Assembly (NCBI GenBank): GCA_041661795.1
Contig: JBAZTS010000001.1
Coordinates: 39,459 to 103,458 of the forward strand
Length of the DNA stretch: 64,000 bases
Direction of reading: 5' to 3'
Origin: Minisyncoccota bacterium
GTDB taxonomy: Bacteria; Patescibacteriota; Minisyncoccia; UBA6257; JAGOQP01
A program made the position numbers and the translations under genes. Positions 1,674 through 52,644 of this stretch are shown in pieces (the first letter of the stretch is position 1; every line of letters starts with the position of its first letter). The notes beneath the pieces were generated by a model. That model was not told the DNA's origin. It was given only the letters and a program-made list of their open reading frames with translations, and searched no databases.

Positions 1674-3132
1674 TTTTAGAAATTAAAGACGCTTTTGTTA
1701 TCGCTTCGTCAATTCTTTTCAATGATTCTTTTTCTCCTAGAACTTCCATGATTTCAAATGGTCCGGGAGAATTTTTCTTTCCAGAAAGAGCTACTCTTAG
1801 AGGCCAAAGCATCTCTCCCCTACCCAGAGCATCGGCAAGAGACATAAGCTTTTCTTCAAGGATTAACTTTGTAAAATCTTTTTCTTTAACTTTTTCAATT
1901 TCGGACTTGACGTTATTAAGATTGGTAACAACATTATTAAAGGACATTCCCTGCCATTTTAAAAGTTCTACGTCCAATTCCCCTCTTTCAAAAAAGAATT
2001 GAGCTAATTCTTTAAAATCGGAAAGTTTTACTAATCTGTCTCTCTCTACAGCTAACGCTCTTTTTAATTTTTCTTTATCTTCAAGCCATTCCTTTGGAAT
2101 AAAATCTTTTATTTTTTTAAATAATTCATTTAAGGGAATATTTTTTATGTACTGGGAATTAAACCAATCCAACTTTTCAACATTAAATATAGCTCCTCCT
2201 TTCTGGACTCTTCTTAAACTGAATTTGGATATTATCTCGTCTATATCCATGATCTCTTTATCGTCTTCTGGATGCCATCCCAATAATATCAAAAAGTTCA
2301 GAAGCGCTTGAGGTAAATATCCTTCTTTAAGGTATTCAACAAAAGATGTCTCCATTTTTCTTTTGGACATCTTGCTTCTGTCGGGAGCCAAAACCAAAGG
2401 CAAGTGGGCATATTTAATTTCTTCAAATCCAAAAGCTCTCTGAATTAAAATTTGTCTGGGAGTGTTGGGAATATGATCTTCGCCCCTGATAACATGGGAA
2501 ATTTTCATTAGATAGTCATCTATAACGACGGCCAGGTTGTACAAAGGTGATTGCAAGTCCTTGGCAATCACAAAATCATCTATCGTGTCCGAGCTGGTAG
2601 AAATTTTACCTCTAATAATATCGCTGAATTCAATATTTAACCCCGAAGGCACCGCCAATCTGATAATTCCATTATTTCCATCTTTTATATTTTGCTTAAT
2701 TTCATCTTCACTAAGAGATCTGCATTTTCCGCTGTATTTTGGAAAAATTCCGGAAGCTAACATGGCTTTTCTTTCTTCATCTAAATCCTCTTTACTGCAA
2801 AAACACCAGTAGGCCTGCTTGTTATCAACTAGTTTTTCTATATATTCTTTATAAATCTCACCTCTTTCGCTCTGCCTATAGGGAGCAAAATCACCTCCAA
2901 CGTCCGGTCCCTCATCCCAATCGATTCCAACCATCTTCAAGCCAGCTAAAATATCTTCCTCATAGATAGGTAAGGATCTGGAGGTATCCGTGTCTTCCAT
3001 TCTGACTATAAACTTACCACCCTCTTTCTTGGCAAAAACATAATTAACCAGGGCTGTTCTCATAGTCCCTAGATGCAAATAACCCGTAGGAGAGGGCGCT
3101 ATTCTCACTCTAATGTCATCATTTTCAGCCAT
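1663..3132 (-). CDS. gltX: glutamate--tRNA ligase
   Basis: Class I aaRS HIGH (PSPTGYLHLGT) and KMSKS (KMSKR) motifs; GluRS-like anticodon-binding C-terminus; overlaps the downstream gene by 11 nt. Confidence 0.9.
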   Translation of the reverse strand: MAENDDIRVRIAPSPTGYLHLGTMRTALVNYVFAKKEGGKFIVRMEDTDTSRSLPIYEEDILAGLKMVGIDWDEGPDVGGDFAPYRQSERGEIYKEYIEKLVDNKQAYWCFCSKEDLDEERKAMLASGIFPKYSGKCRSLSEDEIKQNIKDGNNGIIRLAVPSGLNIEFSDIIRGKISTSSDTIDDFVIAKDLQSPLYNLAVVIDDYLMKISHVIRGEDHIPNTPRQILIQRAFGFEEIKYAHLPLVLAPDRSKMSKRKMETSFVEYLKEGYLPQALLNFLILLGWHPEDDKEIMDIDEIISKFSLRRVQKGGAIFNVEKLDWFNSQYIKNIPLNELFKKIKDFIPKEWLEDKEKLKRALAVERDRLVKLSDFKELAQFFFERGELDVELLKWQGMSFNNVVTNLNNVKSEIEKVKEKDFTKLILEEKLMSLADALGRGEMLWPLRVALSGKKNSPGPFEIMEVLGEKESLKRIDEAITKASLISKNEE

Positions 3133-3172: not shown

Positions 3173-4321
3173 TTACTTAGAAACAGCCAATCTTACCAGT
3201 TCTTGGGCTATAACTAAGGCCGCTTGGGGCTTGGCAAAGCTTTCGGAGGCCTCCGACATTTTTTGACTCTTTTGCTTATTTAAAAGAATCATGTCCATCT
3301 GGATAAAAAATAATGATGGTTTGAGGTTGTCTTCCTCAATAACTAAAGCGGCTCCAGTTTTAGCGTATTCATATGCATTATATGACTGATGGTTTCTGGC
3401 CGATTCTTTAAGAGGAATTAGAATAGACGGTTTTCTAACCATGGCTATTTCAAATATAGAACTGCTTCCTGAACGAGATATTATTAAATCTGAAGCGATC
3501 ATGGCTTCTTTGATATCCTTTTTTAGAAAATCAACAATTTTGTATCTGGCTTTTTCCTCAGGAATCAAATTCTTGGTAGCCACAGCAATCTCTGCTTTAA
3601 AAGAGGCAAAATTTTCCATTCCCACCTGATGAAGAACTTGATATTTAGAAACAAGCTCTTTGATATTATCCAGGAGAAAATCGTTTATTCTGACAGCTCC
3701 TTGAGAACCTCCCAAAATCAATATCAATGGTAAATCGCTTTCAAAACCAAACATTCTTTTGGCTTTTTTCGGGTCTAAGTCCTTATCTTCTTCCAGAAAA
3801 AGAGATCTGACCGGATTTCCTACAACAGCCACTCGAGGACCGGAAATAAAATCAAGAGATTTGGAAAATGACAGAGCAATCCTTCTGGCCATCTTAAAAG
3901 ATAAAGAATTTGTCGCTCCCGGAATAGAATCTGACTCGTGGACAAATATGGGAACATTAAATATATAACAGGCAATAACTACCGACAAAGCTCCGGTGCC
4001 TCCTTTAGAAAAAATAACATCAGGCATTACTCTAAAAATTTTCCAAAGGGCTTGAAGAACCGAAAATGGAAATTTGATGATATCAATTATGTTTTCCAGT
4101 GAAAAATACCTCCTAATCTTAAAACCAATAATGGGCATGATTTTTATTCCCAAAGAAACAAAATCCGCTCTAAAAATTCCAGGGTCACCAAAATAAAAAA
4201 GTTCAAAGGTATTATCTTTTTGATAAGAAATGATTTTCCTAGCTTCTCCGGCTACAGCTAAAAGAGGATTTATATGTCCCCCACTCCCTCCTCCAGTAAA
4301 AGCTATTCTGATATTTCTCAT
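3173..4321 (-). CDS. murG: undecaprenyldiphospho-muramoylpentapeptide beta-N-acetylglucosaminyltransferase
   Basis: N-terminal GGGSGGH glycine loop, GT28 two-domain architecture, adjacent to ftsW. Confidence 0.9.
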   Translation of the reverse strand: MRNIRIAFTGGGSGGHINPLLAVAGEARKIISYQKDNTFELFYFGDPGIFRADFVSLGIKIMPIIGFKIRRYFSLENIIDIIKFPFSVLQALWKIFRVMPDVIFSKGGTGALSVVIACYIFNVPIFVHESDSIPGATNSLSFKMARRIALSFSKSLDFISGPRVAVVGNPVRSLFLEEDKDLDPKKAKRMFGFESDLPLILILGGSQGAVRINDFLLDNIKELVSKYQVLHQVGMENFASFKAEIAVATKNLIPEEKARYKIVDFLKKDIKEAMIASDLIISRSGSSSIFEIAMVRKPSILIPLKESARNHQSYNAYEYAKTGAALVIEEDNLKPSLFFIQMDMILLNKQKSQKMSEASESFAKPQAALVIAQELVRLAVSK

Positions 4322-4450: not shown

Positions 4451-5608
4451 TCATATCAACGAAGAACGTTTAGAAATACCCGCAATAATGCCAAACATAG
4501 TCAAGGTAACCGCCAGAGATGTTCCTCCATAACTAATAAGAGGCAAAGGAACTCCGGTAAATGGTAAAAGCCCTGAATTAGCCGCTATATGAATTATTGC
4601 CTGGATGGAAATAACCGAAATAAATCCTAAAACGCAAAGCTTAGCAAAATCATCATGGCTTTTTTTGACTATATAAGTTCCCTTCCAAAAAATAAGAGCG
4701 TAAAGAAAAATGATAAAAACAGAGCCGATAAACCCAAATTCTTCTCCAATAACGGCAAAAATTGAATCTCCCATGGGTTCAGGTAGAAGATTATATTTAC
4801 TGGTTGATTGCCCGAATCCGACCCCAGTGAGTCCTCCGCTACCTATAGCCATTTTTGACTGGTCAATATGAAAAGTATCAGTTGCCTCAATATTAATTTT
4901 AAAAGAAGGAACTGCGCCTCCGATAGTAGAATTCCAGAATGGAGCAAAACGATAAAATCTATATGGAGTGACTGCCACTAAAAAACCAATCAAAACAACA
5001 CCAATAAGACCAGTCAGTAAAAGTTGTTTTACGGGAGCTCCGCTGTAAATATACATAACTACTCCGGATGCCAAAATTATAACAGCCATGGTAGTTGCCG
5101 GTTGTAAGAATATTAGTCCTCCGGCAATAGCGCAAACAAAAACAAATAAAAAATAAGCTTTCCATCCCTGCTTTAGATTTTTCATATGTGAACTGGAAAG
5201 TAAGGAGGCCAGATAAATAATAAAAGTTATTTTTAAGAATTCCGAGGGTTGGAAAGAAAGTGGACCTAAATTAATCCATCTAAAAGACCCGTGGGCTTGA
5301 TAACCAAGCGGAGTAAAAACCGCCACCAAAAGAAATATGTTTATAAGAAAAAGAAAAGGGGCAAACTTTTTTAAATAGCGATAGTAGATAAAATAACCCA
5401 GAAGAAATCCGGCAACTCCGGGCAAAAATCCCTTTAAAAATTGTCCCTTAATGAAATGATAAGTGTCGTTGAATTTTATTTTACCCAAATCCGAAGAAGC
5501 AGAAGAAAGAATTAAAAAACCGGCCAACAACAAAAAAAATAACGCTCCTAGAATAATATAATCGGGATGATGGCCCGAGAGCAATGATTTTCTTTTCCTA
5601 AAAAACAT
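4451..5608 (-). CDS. ftsW: SEDS family peptidoglycan glycosyltransferase / lipid II flippase FtsW
   Basis: 10-TM SEDS protein with conserved GQSTSKYNLLPEPMGDSIFAVIGEEFGFIG segment; immediately upstream of murG. Confidence 0.8.
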   Translation of the reverse strand: MFFRKRKSLLSGHHPDYIILGALFFLLLAGFLILSSASSDLGKIKFNDTYHFIKGQFLKGFLPGVAGFLLGYFIYYRYLKKFAPFLFLINIFLLVAVFTPLGYQAHGSFRWINLGPLSFQPSEFLKITFIIYLASLLSSSHMKNLKQGWKAYFLFVFVCAIAGGLIFLQPATTMAVIILASGVVMYIYSGAPVKQLLLTGLIGVVLIGFLVAVTPYRFYRFAPFWNSTIGGAVPSFKINIEATDTFHIDQSKMAIGSGGLTGVGFGQSTSKYNLLPEPMGDSIFAVIGEEFGFIGSVFIIFLYALIFWKGTYIVKKSHDDFAKLCVLGFISVISIQAIIHIAANSGLLPFTGVPLPLISYGGTSLAVTLTMFGIIAGISKRSSLI

Positions 5609-5676
5609 AAATCAGCTAATATCTAATCTGTACTAATTTACTAATTATAAAATTCCTATTCGTTTATTTGTATCTA

Positions 5677-7197
5677 TTAGTTATTGGTTGATTTTCTCAA
5701 TACTTTTCCGCCTCCTTTGAAGTTTTTATTAAACTGACTATTCTCAACAGCCATCTGACCATTAATCATTACCATAGAAATATCAAAATCTTTATTCATT
5801 AAAACCAAATCGGCAAAATAACCACTACTAATAAAGCCCCTTCCGTCCAAGTTTAATATTTTGGCTGGAAGTCCCGAGACCTTTGAAACCGCCTTTTCAA
5901 TACTCAATCCAAACCCCGAGGCCTTCTTAAAAAACTCCGGAAATGTTTGATAAGATCTTTGGGGCTTAAAGGATAAAAGCGTATCGTCAAAATTAGGACT
6001 ATTTGAAGAAATTAAAGAACGAGGTGAAAGAATGGCCTTTTCTATCTCTTTTTGGTTGAGATTTTCATAGAATATTACTCCTCTCAACTTAGTTGCCTCC
6101 ATTAGGGAAACAATTGATTTAGATGCCGGAATATCTCTGTTTTGGGCAAATTCGTAAAGGGTCTTTCCATTTAGGAATTCAACTCCGGGAGCGTTTAATA
6201 TAATCACTTTCTGCGGGTCAATTTTTGGAAATTCATCAATAAATTTTTTAGCTATTTCTTTGTCTTTTATTTTTTCCAACACCAATCCCCTGTCTCTGTT
6301 TTTAAAAGAATCTGGGATAAAAGAATCAATGGGAACGGCGCTTGAGGAAAATGGGTTGGCGTCAAAATAAACTTGGGCGGTGGCAATATTTTCCTCTATA
6401 ATTTTTATTGATTCTTCAAATCCTTTTTCAAATCCAAAAAAGGGTCTTAAGTGACTGATAATTCCGGTTATTCCCAATTCACGACTCAGTTTAATAACTT
6501 CCTGAACAGAATCAACGATGGCCAGTTTTTCATTTTTTAAATGAACGGTAAAAAAACCTTTTGATTTCTTAACAGCGTCCAAAAGAGCTCTTATCTCATA
6601 ATAAGTAGTTTGTTGATAAGGAAAATATCCAAGACCAAATGATAAGCCGAAAGCTCCCTCGGACATGGCTTCCAAAACAACTGATCTAAAAACCCTAAGT
6701 TCATTAGCGGTAAGATTTCTAAACTCTTCCCGTTCTTTTATAATATCTTGCCTAATAACCATATGTCCGGCCATTGTTCCGATATTGACTCCGGGTTTTA
6801 TATTTTTTTCAAGAACATTTAAAAATTCTTTTACTTTCTTCCAGTTGATATTGACGTGATTTGTTTTTGACCAGCTCCAAAAATGGTCCAGTGAACCATA
6901 GAAAGATGGCGCCAAAGAAAATCCGCAATGACCAATAAGAGCGCTGGTTATACCTTGAGAAAGAAAATCTTTATGCAAAGGAGAAGAAAATAAAGTCATA
7001 TATCTATCAGAACTGGCATTCATGTCAATAAATCCGGGGAAAAGATACGACTCGTTTCCAAATATTATTTTATCGGCTTTGTATGAAGGAAAACTTCCAA
7101 TGGCCGCTATTTTTTCATCTCTTATTAAAACATCTCCTTTGAAAGGAGCTTTACCGCTTCCATCAACTAAAACTATGTTTTTGATTAAAGTGGTCAT
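5677..7197 (-). CDS. amidohydrolase superfamily protein, N-acyl-D-amino-acid deacylase (D-aminoacylase) family
   Basis: N-terminal small beta-domain (LVDGSG...DVLIRDEKIAAIG), conserved GHCGFSLAP Cys loop; the HxH metal site is replaced (PGFIDMNASSD). Confidence 0.6.
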   Translation of the reverse strand: MTTLIKNIVLVDGSGKAPFKGDVLIRDEKIAAIGSFPSYKADKIIFGNESYLFPGFIDMNASSDRYMTLFSSPLHKDFLSQGITSALIGHCGFSLAPSFYGSLDHFWSWSKTNHVNINWKKVKEFLNVLEKNIKPGVNIGTMAGHMVIRQDIIKEREEFRNLTANELRVFRSVVLEAMSEGAFGLSFGLGYFPYQQTTYYEIRALLDAVKKSKGFFTVHLKNEKLAIVDSVQEVIKLSRELGITGIISHLRPFFGFEKGFEESIKIIEENIATAQVYFDANPFSSSAVPIDSFIPDSFKNRDRGLVLEKIKDKEIAKKFIDEFPKIDPQKVIILNAPGVEFLNGKTLYEFAQNRDIPASKSIVSLMEATKLRGVIFYENLNQKEIEKAILSPRSLISSNSPNFDDTLLSFKPQRSYQTFPEFFKKASGFGLSIEKAVSKVSGLPAKILNLDGRGFISSGYFADLVLMNKDFDISMVMINGQMAVENSQFNKNFKGGGKVLRKSTNN

Positions 7198-39964: not shown

Positions 39965-39981
39965 AAAATACTATTATTTTG

Positions 39982-40054
39982 TCCGCCCACCAGGATTCGA
40001 ACCTGGGACCCTCTCCTTAAAAGGGAGTTGCTCTACCAACTGAGCTATGGGCGG
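39982..40054 (-). tRNA. tRNA-Lys (anticodon TTT), CCA not encoded
   Basis: Minus strand CCGCCCA-TA-GCTC-AGTTGGT-AGAGC...CTCC-CTTTTAA-GGAG...CCAGG-TTCGAAT-CCTGG-TGGGCGG-A. Confidence 0.85.
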
Positions 40055-48699: not shown

Positions 48700-49299
48700 A
48701 TGTTGCCAGAAGAAATAAAAAAATTTATAGAGGTTTTTGAGAAACTTCCTTCTATAGGACCACGCCAAGCTACGCGACTGGCTTTTAAGATGGTTGGAGG
48801 AGGAGTGGCTCAACTGGAAGAAACCGCCAGAGCCATACTGGGCTTGAAGAAAATAAAAAACTGCCCGAGGTGTTTTTTTATTTATTCTGGGCAATCATTA
48901 ACCTGTGAAAGATGTTCTGATGTAAACAGAGTAAAGGATGTCTTTATGATAGTTGAAAAAGAAACCGATTTAATAACCATAGAAAGAACCAGAAAATACA
49001 ACGGAATGTACTTAGTGCTCGGAGAATTAACCAAGAGCGGCAATCTAGAAATTCATCAAAAATTAAGAATTGGACTTCTTAAAAAGATTATAGAAGAACT
49101 CCCAGATAAAAGAGCCAAGGAAATAATCATCGCTCTTAACCCAACCACTTACGGAGACCTAAATGCTTCTATTATTGAGAGAGATTTAAAAGATTATTCG
49201 CAAAAAATAAGCCGTTTAGGAAGAGGAATCCCAACCGGCGGAGAAATAGAGTTTGCGGACGAGGATACGTTGTCGCATTCGCTCCAACGCAGAGAATAA
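48700..49299 (+). CDS. recR: recombination protein RecR
   Basis: HhH (LPSIGPRQATRLAF), C4 zinc finger CPRC...CERC, Toprim domain. Confidence 0.9.
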   Translation: MLPEEIKKFIEVFEKLPSIGPRQATRLAFKMVGGGVAQLEETARAILGLKKIKNCPRCFFIYSGQSLTCERCSDVNRVKDVFMIVEKETDLITIERTRKYNGMYLVLGELTKSGNLEIHQKLRIGLLKKIIEELPDKRAKEIIIALNPTTYGDLNASIIERDLKDYSQKISRLGRGIPTGGEIEFADEDTLSHSLQRRE

Positions 49300-49300
49300 A

Positions 49301-49612
49301 TTATTTTACTAAAGTAATCTTAACTTCGGTGAAATGCTGGCGGTGGCCCTTAGTTTTTCTTACTCTGGCTTTGGAATGATACTTAAAAACAATCACTTTT
49401 TTATCTCTGGCTTGTCTTATAATTTCTCCTTCAACTTTAGCTCCATCAACTACAGGTTTTCCCACTTTAACCTGGGAGTCGTCAAAAACGGCCAGAATGT
49501 TATCAAAGGAAACTTTGTCCCCTGCTTGGCCTTCAATTTTTTCAATTTTTAATTTGTCACCAGAAGAAACTATAAATTGCTTTCCACCGGTCTTTATAAC
49601 AGCAAAATTCAT
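49301..49612 (-). CDS. rplU: 50S ribosomal protein bL21
   Basis: MNFAVIKTGGKQF...KVSFDNILAV...VIVFKYHSKARVRKTKGHRQHFTEVKI; the ORF-track start (49648) is probably 12 codons too long. Confidence 0.85.
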   Translation of the reverse strand: MNFAVIKTGGKQFIVSSGDKLKIEKIEGQAGDKVSFDNILAVFDDSQVKVGKPVVDGAKVEGEIIRQARDKKVIVFKYHSKARVRKTKGHRQHFTEVKITLVK

Positions 49613-49678: not shown

Positions 49679-50629
49679 ATGTTAAATAAAAATCAGAAAA
49701 AGTTTTTTATCATACTTTTTATTTTTGGCCTTGTGGCCCTGTTACCAACTTTAATAGTTTCAATTCTAAACATAGCCAATCAGAGAGAGATGATTAAATC
49801 ATCAATAGAGAATGAAGCGTTCAGATTAGCTAAAACCATGGCTTCTCAAGAACAAAAGAATCTTGATACAATCAAAAACGTTTTAATTAGCTTATCCAAA
49901 TATGCAGAGATTAGCGATAAAAACAACAACGATTGCAATAGATCAATGAAAACTCTCCTTGATTATTTTAATGAACCGTTTCCTCTTTATTTTAATTTAA
50001 CAGTGGCTAATATCAATGGAGATGTTATATGCTCAGCTCTGGATGCATCAGGAAATGTCAATCTTTCAGACAGGTATTATTTTAGGCAAACGATAGAAAC
50101 AGAAGATATGTCTTTCAGCGGATATTCAATAGGAAGAATAACAAAGAAACCGGCCTTACTCTTTTCTTATCCTATTAAAGACGAATCCGGCAGAATAAAT
50201 CTTGTCGCAGTCATTTCTATAAACATTGAAATGTTAAATAAGCAGGCAACAAATTTAAATTTATTAAATAACGACCCATCAATGACAATGACTTTATTGG
50301 ACGACAAAAATTATATAATTATAAGACAACCTGAAAATGAAGACCTCATAGGAACTATCTGGCCAGAAGGTAAGATAAGTAACTTTAAAGAAACTCAAGA
50401 AGGGGTCGGAGAAGGAGTGGATTTGGATGGAGTCAAAAGAATATTTGGATTTACCACTATACCTCAAGAGTCGGGACCAAGTCACTTCAATTTATTAGTA
50501 GGGCTGTCTCAAGACAAGATTAATAAGGAAATTATAGAAAACAAGAAAATAGACATTATTATATTTGTGGCTGGAATAATAATAGCCGTTCTATCATCCT
50601 GGTTAGTAGGGAAAAAATATTTTGAATAA
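49679..50629 (+). CDS. bitopic membrane protein with extracytoplasmic Cache-like sensor domain and no output domain
   Basis: TM1 (aa 8-30), about 250-aa extracellular domain, TM2 near the C-terminus, ends 12 aa after TM2. Confidence 0.45.
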   Translation: MLNKNQKKFFIILFIFGLVALLPTLIVSILNIANQREMIKSSIENEAFRLAKTMASQEQKNLDTIKNVLISLSKYAEISDKNNNDCNRSMKTLLDYFNEPFPLYFNLTVANINGDVICSALDASGNVNLSDRYYFRQTIETEDMSFSGYSIGRITKKPALLFSYPIKDESGRINLVAVISINIEMLNKQATNLNLLNNDPSMTMTLLDDKNYIIIRQPENEDLIGTIWPEGKISNFKETQEGVGEGVDLDGVKRIFGFTTIPQESGPSHFNLLVGLSQDKINKEIIENKKIDIIIFVAGIIIAVLSSWLVGKKYFE

Positions 50630-50925
50630 ACCCACACACCTAATGAACTTTTAATGACTGGCTTATTCTCTGCTTGAGCTGACTAAGTGCATTAGCTCTT
50701 AATTTGAGATTGTGTTCTCTGTGGCGAGCATCGCTTTCATCAGCATAAGCTTCATAATAAATCAACATAAATGGATGACGTGATTTTGTTGAAAAAACTT
50801 TTCCGGAATTATGTTCATTAAACCTTTTGACCAGATTATTTGTCGAACCAGTGTATAACTCGTCATCCTTTTTACTTTTTAAAATATAGACGTAATACAT
50901 AAGTCCATTAGGTGTGGGGGTAAAC
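50628..50925. mobile_element. GIY-YIG gene cassette bounded by about 19-bp imperfect terminal inverted repeats (ACCCACACACCTAATGAAC / GTCCATTAGGTGTGGGGGT)
   Basis: Inverted repeats at 50628-50648 and 50903-50925 share the perfect core CACACCTAATG in inverted orientation and abut the ORF ends; no target-site duplication was verified. Confidence 0.35.
50640..50900 (-). CDS. GIY-YIG nuclease family protein (YhbQ/UPF0213-like)
   Basis: MYYVYILKS...ELYTGSTNNLVKRFNEHN (GIY-x10-YIG, R, E, N catalytic residues); 86 aa. Confidence 0.7.
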   Translation of the reverse strand: MYYVYILKSKKDDELYTGSTNNLVKRFNEHNSGKVFSTKSRHPFMLIYYEAYADESDARHREHNLKLRANALSQLKQRISQSLKVH

Positions 50926-52644
50926 TTATTCTTCTATCTTCTCTATATCCGACTTAATTTTCTTTTCTGCCTGGTAAAGATATTTTTTGAATTTATTTAA
51001 GATAATCTCCTCTTCTTTTGTGAGCTCTCTTTTTGACTTAGTTTTTTCAAGAACCATAATTTGATCTCTTAAATCCTCTTTAAGTTCATCAAAAATCTTA
51101 TGAACGTCTTCTTCTGCCAATCTGATGCTTGATTTCATTCTTCTTCTAAAAGAATTTATTTTGTACCAGAAATACCAAAATATAATAACAATCAAAACAA
51201 TTGCTCCAATAATAGGAACTATAATATTCAATGTATTAATAGCCGATAATCCTAATTTAAAGACCTTAGGTTGTTCAATTAGTAAGTTAAATTTTTCGCT
51301 TGGCAGACTCTTTAAACCTGAGTCATCTATGGCTCTTACCCAAATTTTATAATTTCCAGGGTCAATCTTTTCTTCACTGACAAAAATAAAATTTCCGTTT
51401 TCATCGCTTCTGGTGTTATAAAATATAGGAATTTCATTAGCTCCTTTTTCAATCCAAAGAGTCAAGGTAAGATTAGGTTGAGACGTCCCTCTAACTATTA
51501 GAGGTTCTCCGGGAGACAACGTTTGAGGATAACTGGTTATTTTGGGAGCTTCTTGTGATTCAATACTAAATTCAGTTAAAGAAGTTTCATAATTACCAGC
51601 CCTGTCAAAGGCCTGAACCAGAACAGAATATTTTCCGCTTTCCTCTTGATCTAAGGTGTAGGGATTGCTTTTTACTTTATCGCTGGTAACGATAACAAAA
51701 TTTCCATTTCCAACCTTAACTTTATAATATTCAACCCCCGAAGAATTGTCAGTGGTATTAAAGAGCACAACCGGTTTTTTATTTTTAACAGCGTTTTCAT
51801 CTAAACGAACAATAAACTTATCAGGAGGAGTTGTGTCTATTTGAATCCTAAAATGTGAAACCGCTCCCCAGCCGTTTTTATTTCTAAATTGAACATGAAA
51901 ATACCAAACACCATCATCAAGATCTTTTATATCTTTTGAGCTAATAACAGGAATATAGCCAACGGTAGGAGTAGCGTTAGGAATCTTTCCGATTAAGGTC
52001 TTGACCTCTAAAACGTCACTAGGGACCTGCCAAGACAGAGAAACATCTCCGGATGAATACCATTTATTTGGATCAATGTGAGTAGAAGAAAATATTTGCG
52101 GAGCCACGGGAGTCCCAACAACTATAGATGGAGAGGTTGATTGAGAAATTGATTCTCCGGAAAGATTAAAATTTAGAGCAAGAGGTATTAGATTTTTCAG
52201 AACGTTAGTCCCGGTTCCATCATTGGCCAGAATAGAACCGGAAGAAAAATTAAAGTTAGCTGTTCCGGGGTTTTTTGATTTAAAGTTGATTGTTAATATT
52301 TTTCCTTTGGCTCCTATAAAACCGGGATTTAAAATAATTCCTTCAAAATCAACTTTTCCTGTTTGATTAGAAAAAGACGGTTCTTGAACCCAAAAACTTA
52401 TAAGCGACCCTGATTTTGATACCGAGCTAACATTAACTTTGTCATTGTCGAAAGAAACCGATCCGGAGACGGCGTTAACAGATTGATCAGGGCTGGCAAC
52501 ATAAACATCTACAGAAAATGAAGAATCAACTGAATAGTTAGATGAAGAAGATTGCAAAATTAAATCGGCCGCCAATGCTCCAGAAGTTCCTGCAACAAAA
52601 AAAATAAAAGTTAAGAATAAATTCTTCCAGCTATTTTTCATCAT
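50926..52644 (-). CDS. cell-surface protein: signal peptide, cohesin-like domain, Ig/FN3-like domains, C-terminal TM anchor and cytoplasmic coiled-coil tail
   Basis: N-domain paralogous to that of 52631-53530 (SLISFWVQEPSF...GIILNPGF...KGKILTINFKSK...ILANDGTGTNVL); C-terminal hydrophobic helix then KINSFRRRMK plus charged tail. Confidence 0.55.
   Translation of the reverse strand: MMKNSWKNLFLTFIFFVAGTSGALAADLILQSSSSNYSVDSSFSVDVYVASPDQSVNAVSGSVSFDNDKVNVSSVSKSGSLISFWVQEPSFSNQTGKVDFEGIILNPGFIGAKGKILTINFKSKNPGTANFNFSSGSILANDGTGTNVLKNLIPLALNFNLSGESISQSTSPSIVVGTPVAPQIFSSTHIDPNKWYSSGDVSLSWQVPSDVLEVKTLIGKIPNATPTVGYIPVISSKDIKDLDDGVWYFHVQFRNKNGWGAVSHFRIQIDTTPPDKFIVRLDENAVKNKKPVVLFNTTDNSSGVEYYKVKVGNGNFVIVTSDKVKSNPYTLDQEESGKYSVLVQAFDRAGNYETSLTEFSIESQEAPKITSYPQTLSPGEPLIVRGTSQPNLTLTLWIEKGANEIPIFYNTRSDENGNFIFVSEEKIDPGNYKIWVRAIDDSGLKSLPSEKFNLLIEQPKVFKLGLSAINTLNIIVPIIGAIVLIVIIFWYFWYKINSFRRRMKSSIRLAEEDVHKIFDELKEDLRDQIMVLEKTKSKRELTKEEEIILNKFKKYLYQAEKKIKSDIEKIEE

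Follow-up and report, generated by a model that had tools for sequence, protein, structure and literature searches.

In a 64,000-nucleotide stretch of a Minisyncoccota bacterium genome (contig JBAZTS010000001.1 of assembly GCA_041661795.1, positions 39,459 to 103,458; hereafter the window), we find a unit of 290 bp in which a gene for an 86-residue GIY-YIG nuclease lies between terminal inverted repeats (TIRs) and a perfect 4-bp target-site duplication (TSD). Coordinates given below are positions in the window, and L-numbers (e.g. L026) are genomic loci of relatives that were fetched for comparison. Sequence comparison identifies the unit as mobile DNA, marked by its TIRs and 4-bp TSD, and its mobility is well supported: the family to which it belongs occurs in unrelated contexts, in several near-identical copies per genome, as derivatives that have lost the open reading frame (ORF), and in variable states at one site. 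We consider it probable that the window unit (50631-50920) is a miniature foldback transposon of a family widespread in the Candidate Phyla Radiation (CPR), and that its own nuclease, a relative of the Ssn enzymes, recognises the paired ends. It is the role of the nuclease in movement that we infer. The initial annotation of the window had raised the possibility of a minimal mobile cassette with TIRs, and TSDs, arms found elsewhere and presence or absence in relatives now support it.

The starting observation, an inverted repeat bracketing an 86-aa GIY-YIG ORF, was confirmed by a repeat search, which gave arms of 21 nt (50630-50650 and 50901-50921) that are 90% complementary and 250 nt apart. 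The outermost A/T of these arms are better read as part of the TAAA repeat, leaving an element proper with 20-nt arms, two mismatches, termini CCC...GGG and an intact ORF. The left-arm terminal core, CCC(C/A)CACACC, is common to the window element and homologous elements. A 19-nt arm pattern has only two sites in the window, where 0.01 are expected, and none of 100 shuffles gave two. That an inverted repeat lies beside an ordinary GIY-YIG gene by chance might be entertained on the strength of its one occurrence in the window, but the same bracket at dozens of independent loci refutes this idea and leaves it a negligible probability.

Target-site duplications and movement among relatives

The TAAA/TAAA repeat of the window copy had gone unnoticed in the initial annotation, which had named a TSD as something to look for, and it matches a family-wide peak at 4 bp. 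For 72 non-composite elements we compared the nucleotides before the C-run with those after the G-run, using flanks taken from different loci as the null. In 24 of the 72 (33%, against 3% in the null) the two flanks carry an identical direct repeat of 4 nt or more, and in 22 this repeat measures exactly 4 nt. The repeats vary (TAAA, TTTA, TAGA, TATA, TTGA, TCAA, ATAA, CCGA and others) and are therefore target duplications rather than element sequence. Adjacent elements can be exactly 4 nt apart (GGGGG-TCCA-CCCCC, GGGGG-CCGA-CCCCC and GGGG-TCAA-CCCC); because tandem copies have this spacing, cutting and insertion would appear to occur at the boundary of an existing end.

Removal of the window element and one TAAA copy yields TTTGAATAAACTTATTC as the likely pre-insertion target, a 2-nt gap between two convergent stops; for a relative, this kind of reconstruction was compared with actual empty sites. 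Insertion would thus have hit the stop codon of the upstream dCache-like gene, and the duplication would have regenerated that stop. Insertions often fall on start or stop codons, with the duplication and the terminal nucleotide rebuilding the codon (Table 1). A strong preference for stop codons was considered and rejected, since the enrichment is modest: of 65 elements, 10 lie directly against the end of an ORF of 80 aa or more, compared with 3.6% of random positions.

Evidence of movement comes from several comparisons: (i) L029 and L032, two contigs of one metagenome-assembled genome (MAG), carry 327-bp elements with ~97% identity, whose homology on the 5' side reaches precisely to the first C of the terminus and no further; (ii) 251 of 253 pairs of core-A loci, which have the same arm type, share no homologous ORF in their 3-kb flanks; (iii) among relatives with the DnaB-RecR-L21 gene order, a GIY-YIG cassette lies between DnaB and RecR in L081 and L093 and beside a tRNA gene beyond L21 in L155, while neither the window nor the other ~75 loci have a cassette at those places; and (iv) L026 and L028 have orthologous flanks around a cassette that is inverted in one relative to the other, with breakpoints at the outer arm ends.

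The site of L026 could be followed further. From its flanking MurJ we went to close homologues and their contigs, which gave sites that are orthologous or MurJ-adjacent (murJ/ABC-transporter) and that are empty, occupied, occupied in flipped orientation or marked by a footprint-like remnant (Table 1). L163 minus its element and one repeat copy aligns with the empty murJ sites. The remnant in L168, a short sequence on one contig, is shaped like an excision footprint and consists of both duplication copies and a few terminal nucleotides of the element that is intact in L028. A second polymorphism lies in L169, where an element without an ORF, TCCCGTACGAAGT...ACTTCGTACGGGA, has inserted at the start codon of the ABC transporter and is flanked by the 4-bp TSD TGGA; the empty counterpart in L166 and L167 reads ATATGGAAAAAG. 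As aligned contigs, the murJ/ABC comparisons show discrete insertion with a 4-5-bp duplication, and the states of the murJ site suggest repeated use of one site, or excision. Presence or absence at an orthologous site, another check named at the outset, is thus found at the murJ/ABC site of a relative, and cassette positions differ among genomes syntenic for DnaB-RecR-L21; among the relatives reached for the window's own locus no empty counterpart was found.

The nuclease and the arms around it

The window protein matches the Pfam GIY-YIG domain (PF01541; E 2.2e-18, 66.8 bits against a cut-off of 22.6), its sole Pfam domain, and there is no specific NCBIfam model for it. Residues Y3, Y5, Y16, G18, R26, H30, E50, R61 and E62 are invariant in 36 family members and all are kept in the window protein; among them, Y5, Y16, R26, H30 and E50 include the catalytic tyrosines and arginine and the metal-binding glutamate characteristic of the GIY-YIG superfamily. 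The AlphaFold2 model (predicted local distance difference test score 94.5) has strands at 2-9, 15-20 and 44-52 and helices at 23-32, 36-41 and 55-85, in the beta-beta-alpha-alpha-beta-alpha order of the superfamily, a predicted GIY-YIG core followed by a long C-terminal helix. Its best relatives in the PDB by sequence and fold are UPF0213 BH0048 and Slx1, with I-TevI and UvrC also returned by Foldseek. Minimal GIY-YIG proteins of the UPF0213/Slx1-like kind (PDB 1zg2 and 1ywl; ~35% identity), a stand-alone domain group described by Dunin-Horkawicz et al. (2006), differ in that no mobile-element context is on record for them.

Close relatives, 70-79% identical, are found in CPR/Patescibacteria of several classes, and the homologue family comprises 6830 clusters at 50% identity with E <= 1e-3 (792 with E <= 1e-10). 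Within the element family the relatives' proteins are stand-alone GIY-YIG proteins of 84-86 aa. Library matches also include GIY-YIG products of 200-370 aa with an N-terminal nuclease domain, and in L041 (3001-3762) and L043 (3001-3633) GIY-YIG ORFs with the domain at the N-terminus run through the 3' arm; such long products may be true fusions or may stem from lost stop codons.

To look at the arms, sequence upstream of the ATG was compared with sequence around the stop codon in 80 genomic loci encoding relatives. By script, 35 of the 80 exceed the 99th percentile of a mismatched-pair null for arm complementarity, and by hand count bracketing arms are present at about 38 of the 48 closest homologue loci. 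Across CPR lineages the arms are 13-30 nt long, start with a C-run and end with a G-run, around the terminal core CCCC[C/G](A)CACC...GGTG..GGGG. Their outer 10-12 nt are conserved, as ACCCCCACACC...GGTGTGGGGGT, ACCCCGCACC or ACCCCGTTAGA, and each core goes with its own subclade of the protein, the subclades differing mainly in the C-terminal helix (REHNLKLR with ACCCCCACACC, LKxFGKxYSQLKR with ACCCCGCACC and YLKxGxGKRYLKNRL with ACCCCGTTAGA). The inner 8-15 nt vary between loci and stay complementary within each locus. Across an alignment of 28 arm pairs, pairing extends to 88% of cells (64% in shuffles), two-sided changes are seen in 20 of 23 pairs, and the covariation score is 0.61 (0.17 in shuffles), a signal that is lost when the partner is slid by one column; this set was picked for pairing, an ascertainment bias by which the numbers describe how arms evolve and not how frequent they are. 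Because arm sequence drifts while complementarity persists, we believe that the arms act by pairing with each other.

Pairing of this kind might take place in RNA, and a regulatory hairpin had been the fallback in the initial annotation. A long-range stem would then join the ends of the GIY-YIG message for RNase III-type processing, stability or translational control. The window stem does form in both minimum-energy and centroid folds of the sense RNA (z -5.2), the window 5' arm adjoins the start codon, and covariation is strong. Single-stranded DNA (ssDNA) of the opposite strand folds equally well, however, with z about -5, and G.T wobbles have no bias toward the sense strand (7 vs 5, p 0.77), which counts against a purely RNA role and fits DNA. 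Furthermore, (i) non-coding inserts of 4-130 nt also lie between these arms; (ii) the distance from 5' arm to ATG varies from 0 to ~30 nt across loci; (iii) in one subgroup a TATAAT-like -10 box separates the 5' arm from the ATG, so that the arm would not be transcribed from that box; and (iv) TSDs and empty sites would go unexplained, and an Rfam scan of the element region gave chance-level matches only and no family. We regard a role at the RNA level as very unlikely and find no specific support for the hairpin fallback.

Copies of the ends were sought in all fetched DNA (~965 kb, the scope of the negatives below) as C-run...G-run pairs with at least 13 complementary positions. The scan gave 88 C-first pairs against 5 in a G-first orientation control, which is the meaningful one here since conserved arms survive a block shuffle and make that control uninformative for element counts. 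Two size classes emerged, one of ~280-330 nt, always with a GIY-YIG ORF, and one of 27 to ~140 nt without an ORF. These miniatures (Table 1), among them 98-nt tandem units in L029 and L032, share 10-18 terminal nt with the resident GIY-YIG element of the same genome, and they are also present in loci fetched for an unrelated reason, such as the RecR-L21 spacer of L082. Further copies of the TIR, for which the initial annotation had suggested a search, are accordingly to be had around most of the 48 closest homologues and around ORF-less miniatures, while the window holds no second copy of the element, of its arms or of a relative of the GIY-YIG protein.

The spacer of L082 deserves description in its own right. 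Its 368-nt RecR-L21 junction (5600-5968; RecR identity 73%) holds two adjacent hairpin elements of different arm types, from which it appears that the hairpin repeats cluster as repetitive extragenic palindromic (REP) and bacterial interspersed mosaic elements do; in the window RecR and L21 converge at 49299-49301 with no spacer. Short-loop hairpins followed by T-rich tracts are found at convergent gene ends in relatives (e.g. L082 5936-5963).

The existence of ORF-less copies brings up the possibility that the unit resembles a miniature inverted-repeat transposable element (MITE), moved in trans by a conventional transposase (for example a DDE enzyme that leaves 4-bp duplications), with the GIY-YIG gene a long-standing passenger. 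TIRs with a 4-bp TSD are a classic DDE signature, miniatures with the same ends exist, and the GIY-YIG nucleases are not, to our knowledge, enzymes of strand transfer. Against this, the scan found no protein-coding content other than the GIY-YIG ORF between such termini and no parent insertion sequence (IS) with the same ends; when larger elements with these ends were examined for a hidden transposase they were only composites of neighbouring small elements. In addition, the gene is associated with the arms across hundreds of genomes, each of the three arm types going with its own subclade of the protein; the ORF takes up 90% of the element and, at 70-79% identity across CPR classes, is clearly constrained; and the arms stay complementary while drifting, which fits a paired stem and not two independent transposase sites. 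We therefore think a transposase acting in trans unlikely. The initial annotation had listed a MITE-like element as an option. The family shares with MITEs and foldback elements such as Correia its small size, TIRs, short TSDs, intergenic positions at gene ends and ORF-less copies, but MITEs are non-coding and need a parent IS, whereas the window copy has a conserved, intact ORF and no parent element was found. Classification of the window copy as a MITE was rejected for these reasons.

Relation to Ssn enzymes and a possible mechanism

There is precedent for a small GIY-YIG enzyme paired with hairpin repeats. Ssn enzymes are single-strand-specific nucleases of 94 aa with a single GIY-YIG domain. 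They bind ssDNA at an NTS/SRM hairpin repeat and cleave a few nucleotides to its 5' side, even when the hairpin is given as two separate halves (Chenal et al., Nat Commun 2025, PMC11893778). The same authors found NTS/SRM repeats on both sides of ssn genes, noted the IS-like "repeat-gene-repeat" layout, drew the analogy with REP-associated tyrosine transposases (RAYTs) and REP, and proposed domestication (PMC11893778). The window protein aligns with an SRM-flanked Azospirillum homologue over query residues 2-66 (76% of the query) at 38% identity (E 2e-13; hhalign probability 98%). Membership of the Ssn family (cd10448) is judged by a top CDD hit to cd10448, or by BLASTP at E < 1e-10 and 75% coverage or more to N. 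meningitidis SsnA (CAX49033.1), and the Azospirillum match serves here as a proxy for these. Like Ssn the window protein belongs to the ~90-aa class of stand-alone GIY-YIG proteins with no DNA-binding or accessory domain. In the CPR family, as in Ssn systems, G+C-rich inverted repeats whose stem resembles CCCCGC bracket the gene, and the repeat recurs elsewhere in the genome. The differences are that the CPR gene sits in one split hairpin with its halves ~250 nt apart, whereas the Ssn gene lies between complete local hairpins; that the last ~20 C-terminal residues and the repeat are different in the CPR proteins; and that the CPR family has 4-bp TSDs, empty sites and near-identical copies, whereas no target duplication is reported in PMC11893778, a text that does not contain the words "duplication" or "direct repeat" and mentions no CPR hosts. 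The published SRM pattern (HGTCWY..YYVSBRH..WNVSBRG..RNCYNB, required within 500 bp on both sides) occurs at 0 of 81 loci, the window included, and finds 4 canonical SRMs around the Azospirillum GIY-YIG gene. On these alignments the CPR proteins are homologues of Ssn-type enzymes with a different C-terminus, repeat and layout. Since Ssn still cuts a hairpin supplied as two halves, the split stem of the CPR element is by analogy a plausible substrate of the same sort.

The Azospirillum gene was one of four weak tblastn matches on plasmids, and the one that is a canonical SRM-flanked Ssn gene. In L161 (Azospirillum lipoferum 4B plasmid AZO_p3, NC_016623.1 254518-256715) an Ssn-type gene lies between sufB and sufC, and on each side an inverted SRM pair (CGTCATCCCCGCGAAGGCGGGGATCCAG) forms its own ~85-nt foldback.

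Given this homology, the window gene might be a domesticated Ssn-like host nuclease among its own repeats, as in NTS-ssnA-NTS or RAYT/REP, with the window copy fixed and immobile and the hairpins serving host functions such as termination, recombination control or control of DNA uptake. The single copy in the window, the short-loop hairpins with T-rich tracts at convergent gene ends in relatives and the proposal of the Ssn authors themselves (PMC11893778) would all agree with such a role. The intact TSDs and the near-identical copies at different loci speak against it, as do the four states of the murJ site, the unrelated flanks of almost all core-A pairs and the position of the gene inside a single split hairpin instead of between complete ones. 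We give domestication a small chance, much like that of the transposase acting in trans; the evidence of recent movement counters it for the family rather than for the single window copy.

Other systems were compared as well. The element is like RAYT/REPIN (REPtron) and IS200/IS605 systems in that hairpin repeats lie on both sides of a gene for a small nuclease or transposase and many gene-less intergenic copies exist. RAYT and IS200/IS605 enzymes act on their flanking repeats as ssDNA and are HUH/Y1 transposases with covalent intermediates. Those systems have no TSD and no true TIRs, in contrast to the TIRs, 4-bp TSD and GIY-YIG hydrolase of the CPR element. Homing GIY-YIG endonucleases (I-TevI, Seg) are likewise selfish genes placed in their own target region and have a related catalytic fold, but they possess a separate DNA-binding domain, spread between alleles by double-strand-break repair and have neither TIRs nor TSDs. 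The homing-element option of the initial annotation was dropped, as the window protein has no extra domain and scores 20.9 bits against a 56-bit cut-off for the group-I-intron model TIGR01453, and the element has TIRs and a TSD.

No recognised transposase (DDE, HUH, serine or tyrosine recombinase) is encoded in the element, whose only ORF is the GIY-YIG gene, and a full-text literature search combining GIY-YIG with TIR, TSD and transposase found no such prokaryotic element described. We know of no IS family that uses a GIY-YIG nuclease. As far as that search reached, then, the family is undescribed as a transposon type, and transposon hallmarks are unreported for the Ssn-type theme of nuclease plus hairpin repeat. 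The statement in the initial annotation that the unit is not a described IS type stands within that reach, although an IS-like layout had already been noted for a related nuclease family (PMC11893778).

Our working model for movement is as follows. The element ends would pair where the DNA is single-stranded, such as at replication forks or in the course of uptake. The paired stem might then be recognised by the element's nuclease and nicked immediately beyond its base, in the way that Ssn cleaves a few nt to the 5' side of its hairpin. If donor and target were both cut with a 4-nt stagger, excision, insertion next to existing ends and a 4-bp duplication could follow, with host repair and ligation finishing the reaction. 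Taken to its full extent, the model would describe an unrecognised class of prokaryotic transposon, the smallest autonomous one known (~290-330 bp), mobilised by an 86-residue GIY-YIG hydrolase through an ssDNA end stem and 4-nt-staggered cuts. We advance this stronger version only tentatively, and it may well claim too much.

Several points weigh against our interpretation. Action of the nuclease on the arms, and catalysis of movement by it, are predictions from sequence comparison. GIY-YIG enzymes are DNA hydrolases with no known role in strand transfer, and joining would for that reason need host functions. Arm type and protein subclade would be expected to diverge together even if the gene were a passenger, and the arm set used for covariation carries the bias described above. 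About half of the elements lack a clean TSD (25 of the 72 have none), which decay and adjacent elements explain in some cases, and the "same genome" status of L029 and L032 depends on MAG binning. With regard to the window copy itself, it is single in 64 kb, its arms have two mismatches, and an orthologous empty site was not found among relatives reached via RecR, in which DnaB-RecR-L21 is retained and the dCache and surface genes are missing. Look-ups of the exact proteins of the window's three genes returned no records, precluding a sister-strain comparison of the locus.

The window copy, its surroundings and implications for CPR genomes

The features of the window element and those of the comparison loci are collected in Table 1. 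The initial annotation had both arms overlapping the ORF termini and zero spacing to the neighbours: the first holds for the left arm and not for the right, and the second is not exact, as the TAAA copies intervene or overlap. No promoter-like site was called between the gene for the 572-aa surface protein and the GIY-YIG ORF, and no Shine-Dalgarno-like sequence is visible there; transcription of the GIY-YIG gene would therefore probably depend on read-through out of the surface-protein operon that precedes it.

Table 1. Positions of the window element, its flanks and related features in comparison loci
Feature	Position	Strand	Remarks
Whole element	50631-50920	-	290 bp, between the stop codons of two convergent genes
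Left TSD copy, TAAA	50627-50630		Contains stop TAA (50627-50629) of the upstream dCache-like gene; from sequence and TSD comparison
Left TIR, CCCACACACCTAATGAACTT	50631-50650	+	Overlaps last three codons and stop TAG (50640-50642) of the GIY-YIG ORF
GIY-YIG nuclease gene	50640-50900	-	86 aa, single-domain; 90% of element length; PF01541
Right TIR, AAGTCCATTAGGTGTGGGGG	50901-50920	+	Adjoins ATG (50898-50900) of the minus-strand GIY-YIG ORF without overlap
Right TSD copy, TAAA	50921-50924		One base ahead of the stop codon (50926-50928) of the 572-aa surface-protein gene
Flanking host gene, 316-aa membrane protein, dCache_1-like	49679-50629	+	Outside the element; PF02743 44.4 bits, just under the 45-bit cut-off
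Flanking host gene, 572-aa surface protein, Big_13 domain	50926-52644	-	Outside the element; same orientation as the GIY-YIG ORF, directly upstream
murJ site, empty	L164, L165, L166, L167, L169		GAGCTTTAAAATTATGG
murJ site, occupied	L026, L163		GAGCTTTGA / CCCCC..319 bp..GGGGG / TTTGAAATATGG
murJ site, occupied and flipped	L028		GGGCTTTAG / CCCC...GGGG / CTTTAAAAAC
murJ site, footprint-like remnant	L168 ~2900-2925		GGGCTTTAG-CCGGGG-CTTTAAAAC (CTTTAG-CCGGGG-CTTTA) at the murJ stop codon
Rebuilt codon, ABC-transporter ATG	L169 ~2975-3078
Rebuilt codon, murJ TGA	L026 3274-3278
Rebuilt codon, dCache-like TAA	50627-50630
Miniature	L019 545-581		Loop 6 nt
Miniature	L040 3768-3797		Loop 4 nt
Miniatures, tandem	L029, L032		98-nt units

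Distant clades of the same small GIY-YIG family lack split-hairpin arms (L049, L055, L061, L063-L067, L075, L077, L078 and L080). Their ORFs end at ~3240-3280, with the stop 2-25 nt before, or overlapping, the 5' end of a tRNA gene (Cys, Ser, Trp, Tyr, Lys, His or Thr), and just upstream of the ORF there is a partial copy of the tRNA 5' part broken by a short CCCCGC...GCGGGG hairpin. From its sequence this arrangement looks like a second insertion mode, one that targets tRNA genes.

Elsewhere in the window, ARAGORN calls a "tRNA-Stop" with anticodon TTA at 39981-40054 on the minus strand. The Rfam tRNA alignment (70.6 bits) sets the anticodon loop as C-U-[UUU]-A-A, and the gene is therefore an ordinary tRNA-Lys(UUU), while the suppressor call looks like a one-base register error.

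If our interpretation is right, an 86-residue hydrolase as the only mobiliser raises the question of how cutting and joining are split between element and host. On the stronger version of the model, elements of this kind would have given rise by domestication to the Ssn/NTS systems of Neisseria, Wolbachia and others, or would be their cousins, and the Ssn nucleases, which are of interest as ssDNA tools, would gain a natural history as mobile elements. The family would also provide a large reservoir of new pairs of enzyme and hairpin specificity, with its 6830 clusters and three arm types tied to subclades. CPR genomes are small and considered poor in mobile DNA. Elements that sit at gene ends, regenerate stop and start codons, form arrays and can flip may be chief contributors to micro-rearrangement in CPR bacteria and to their intergenic hairpins.

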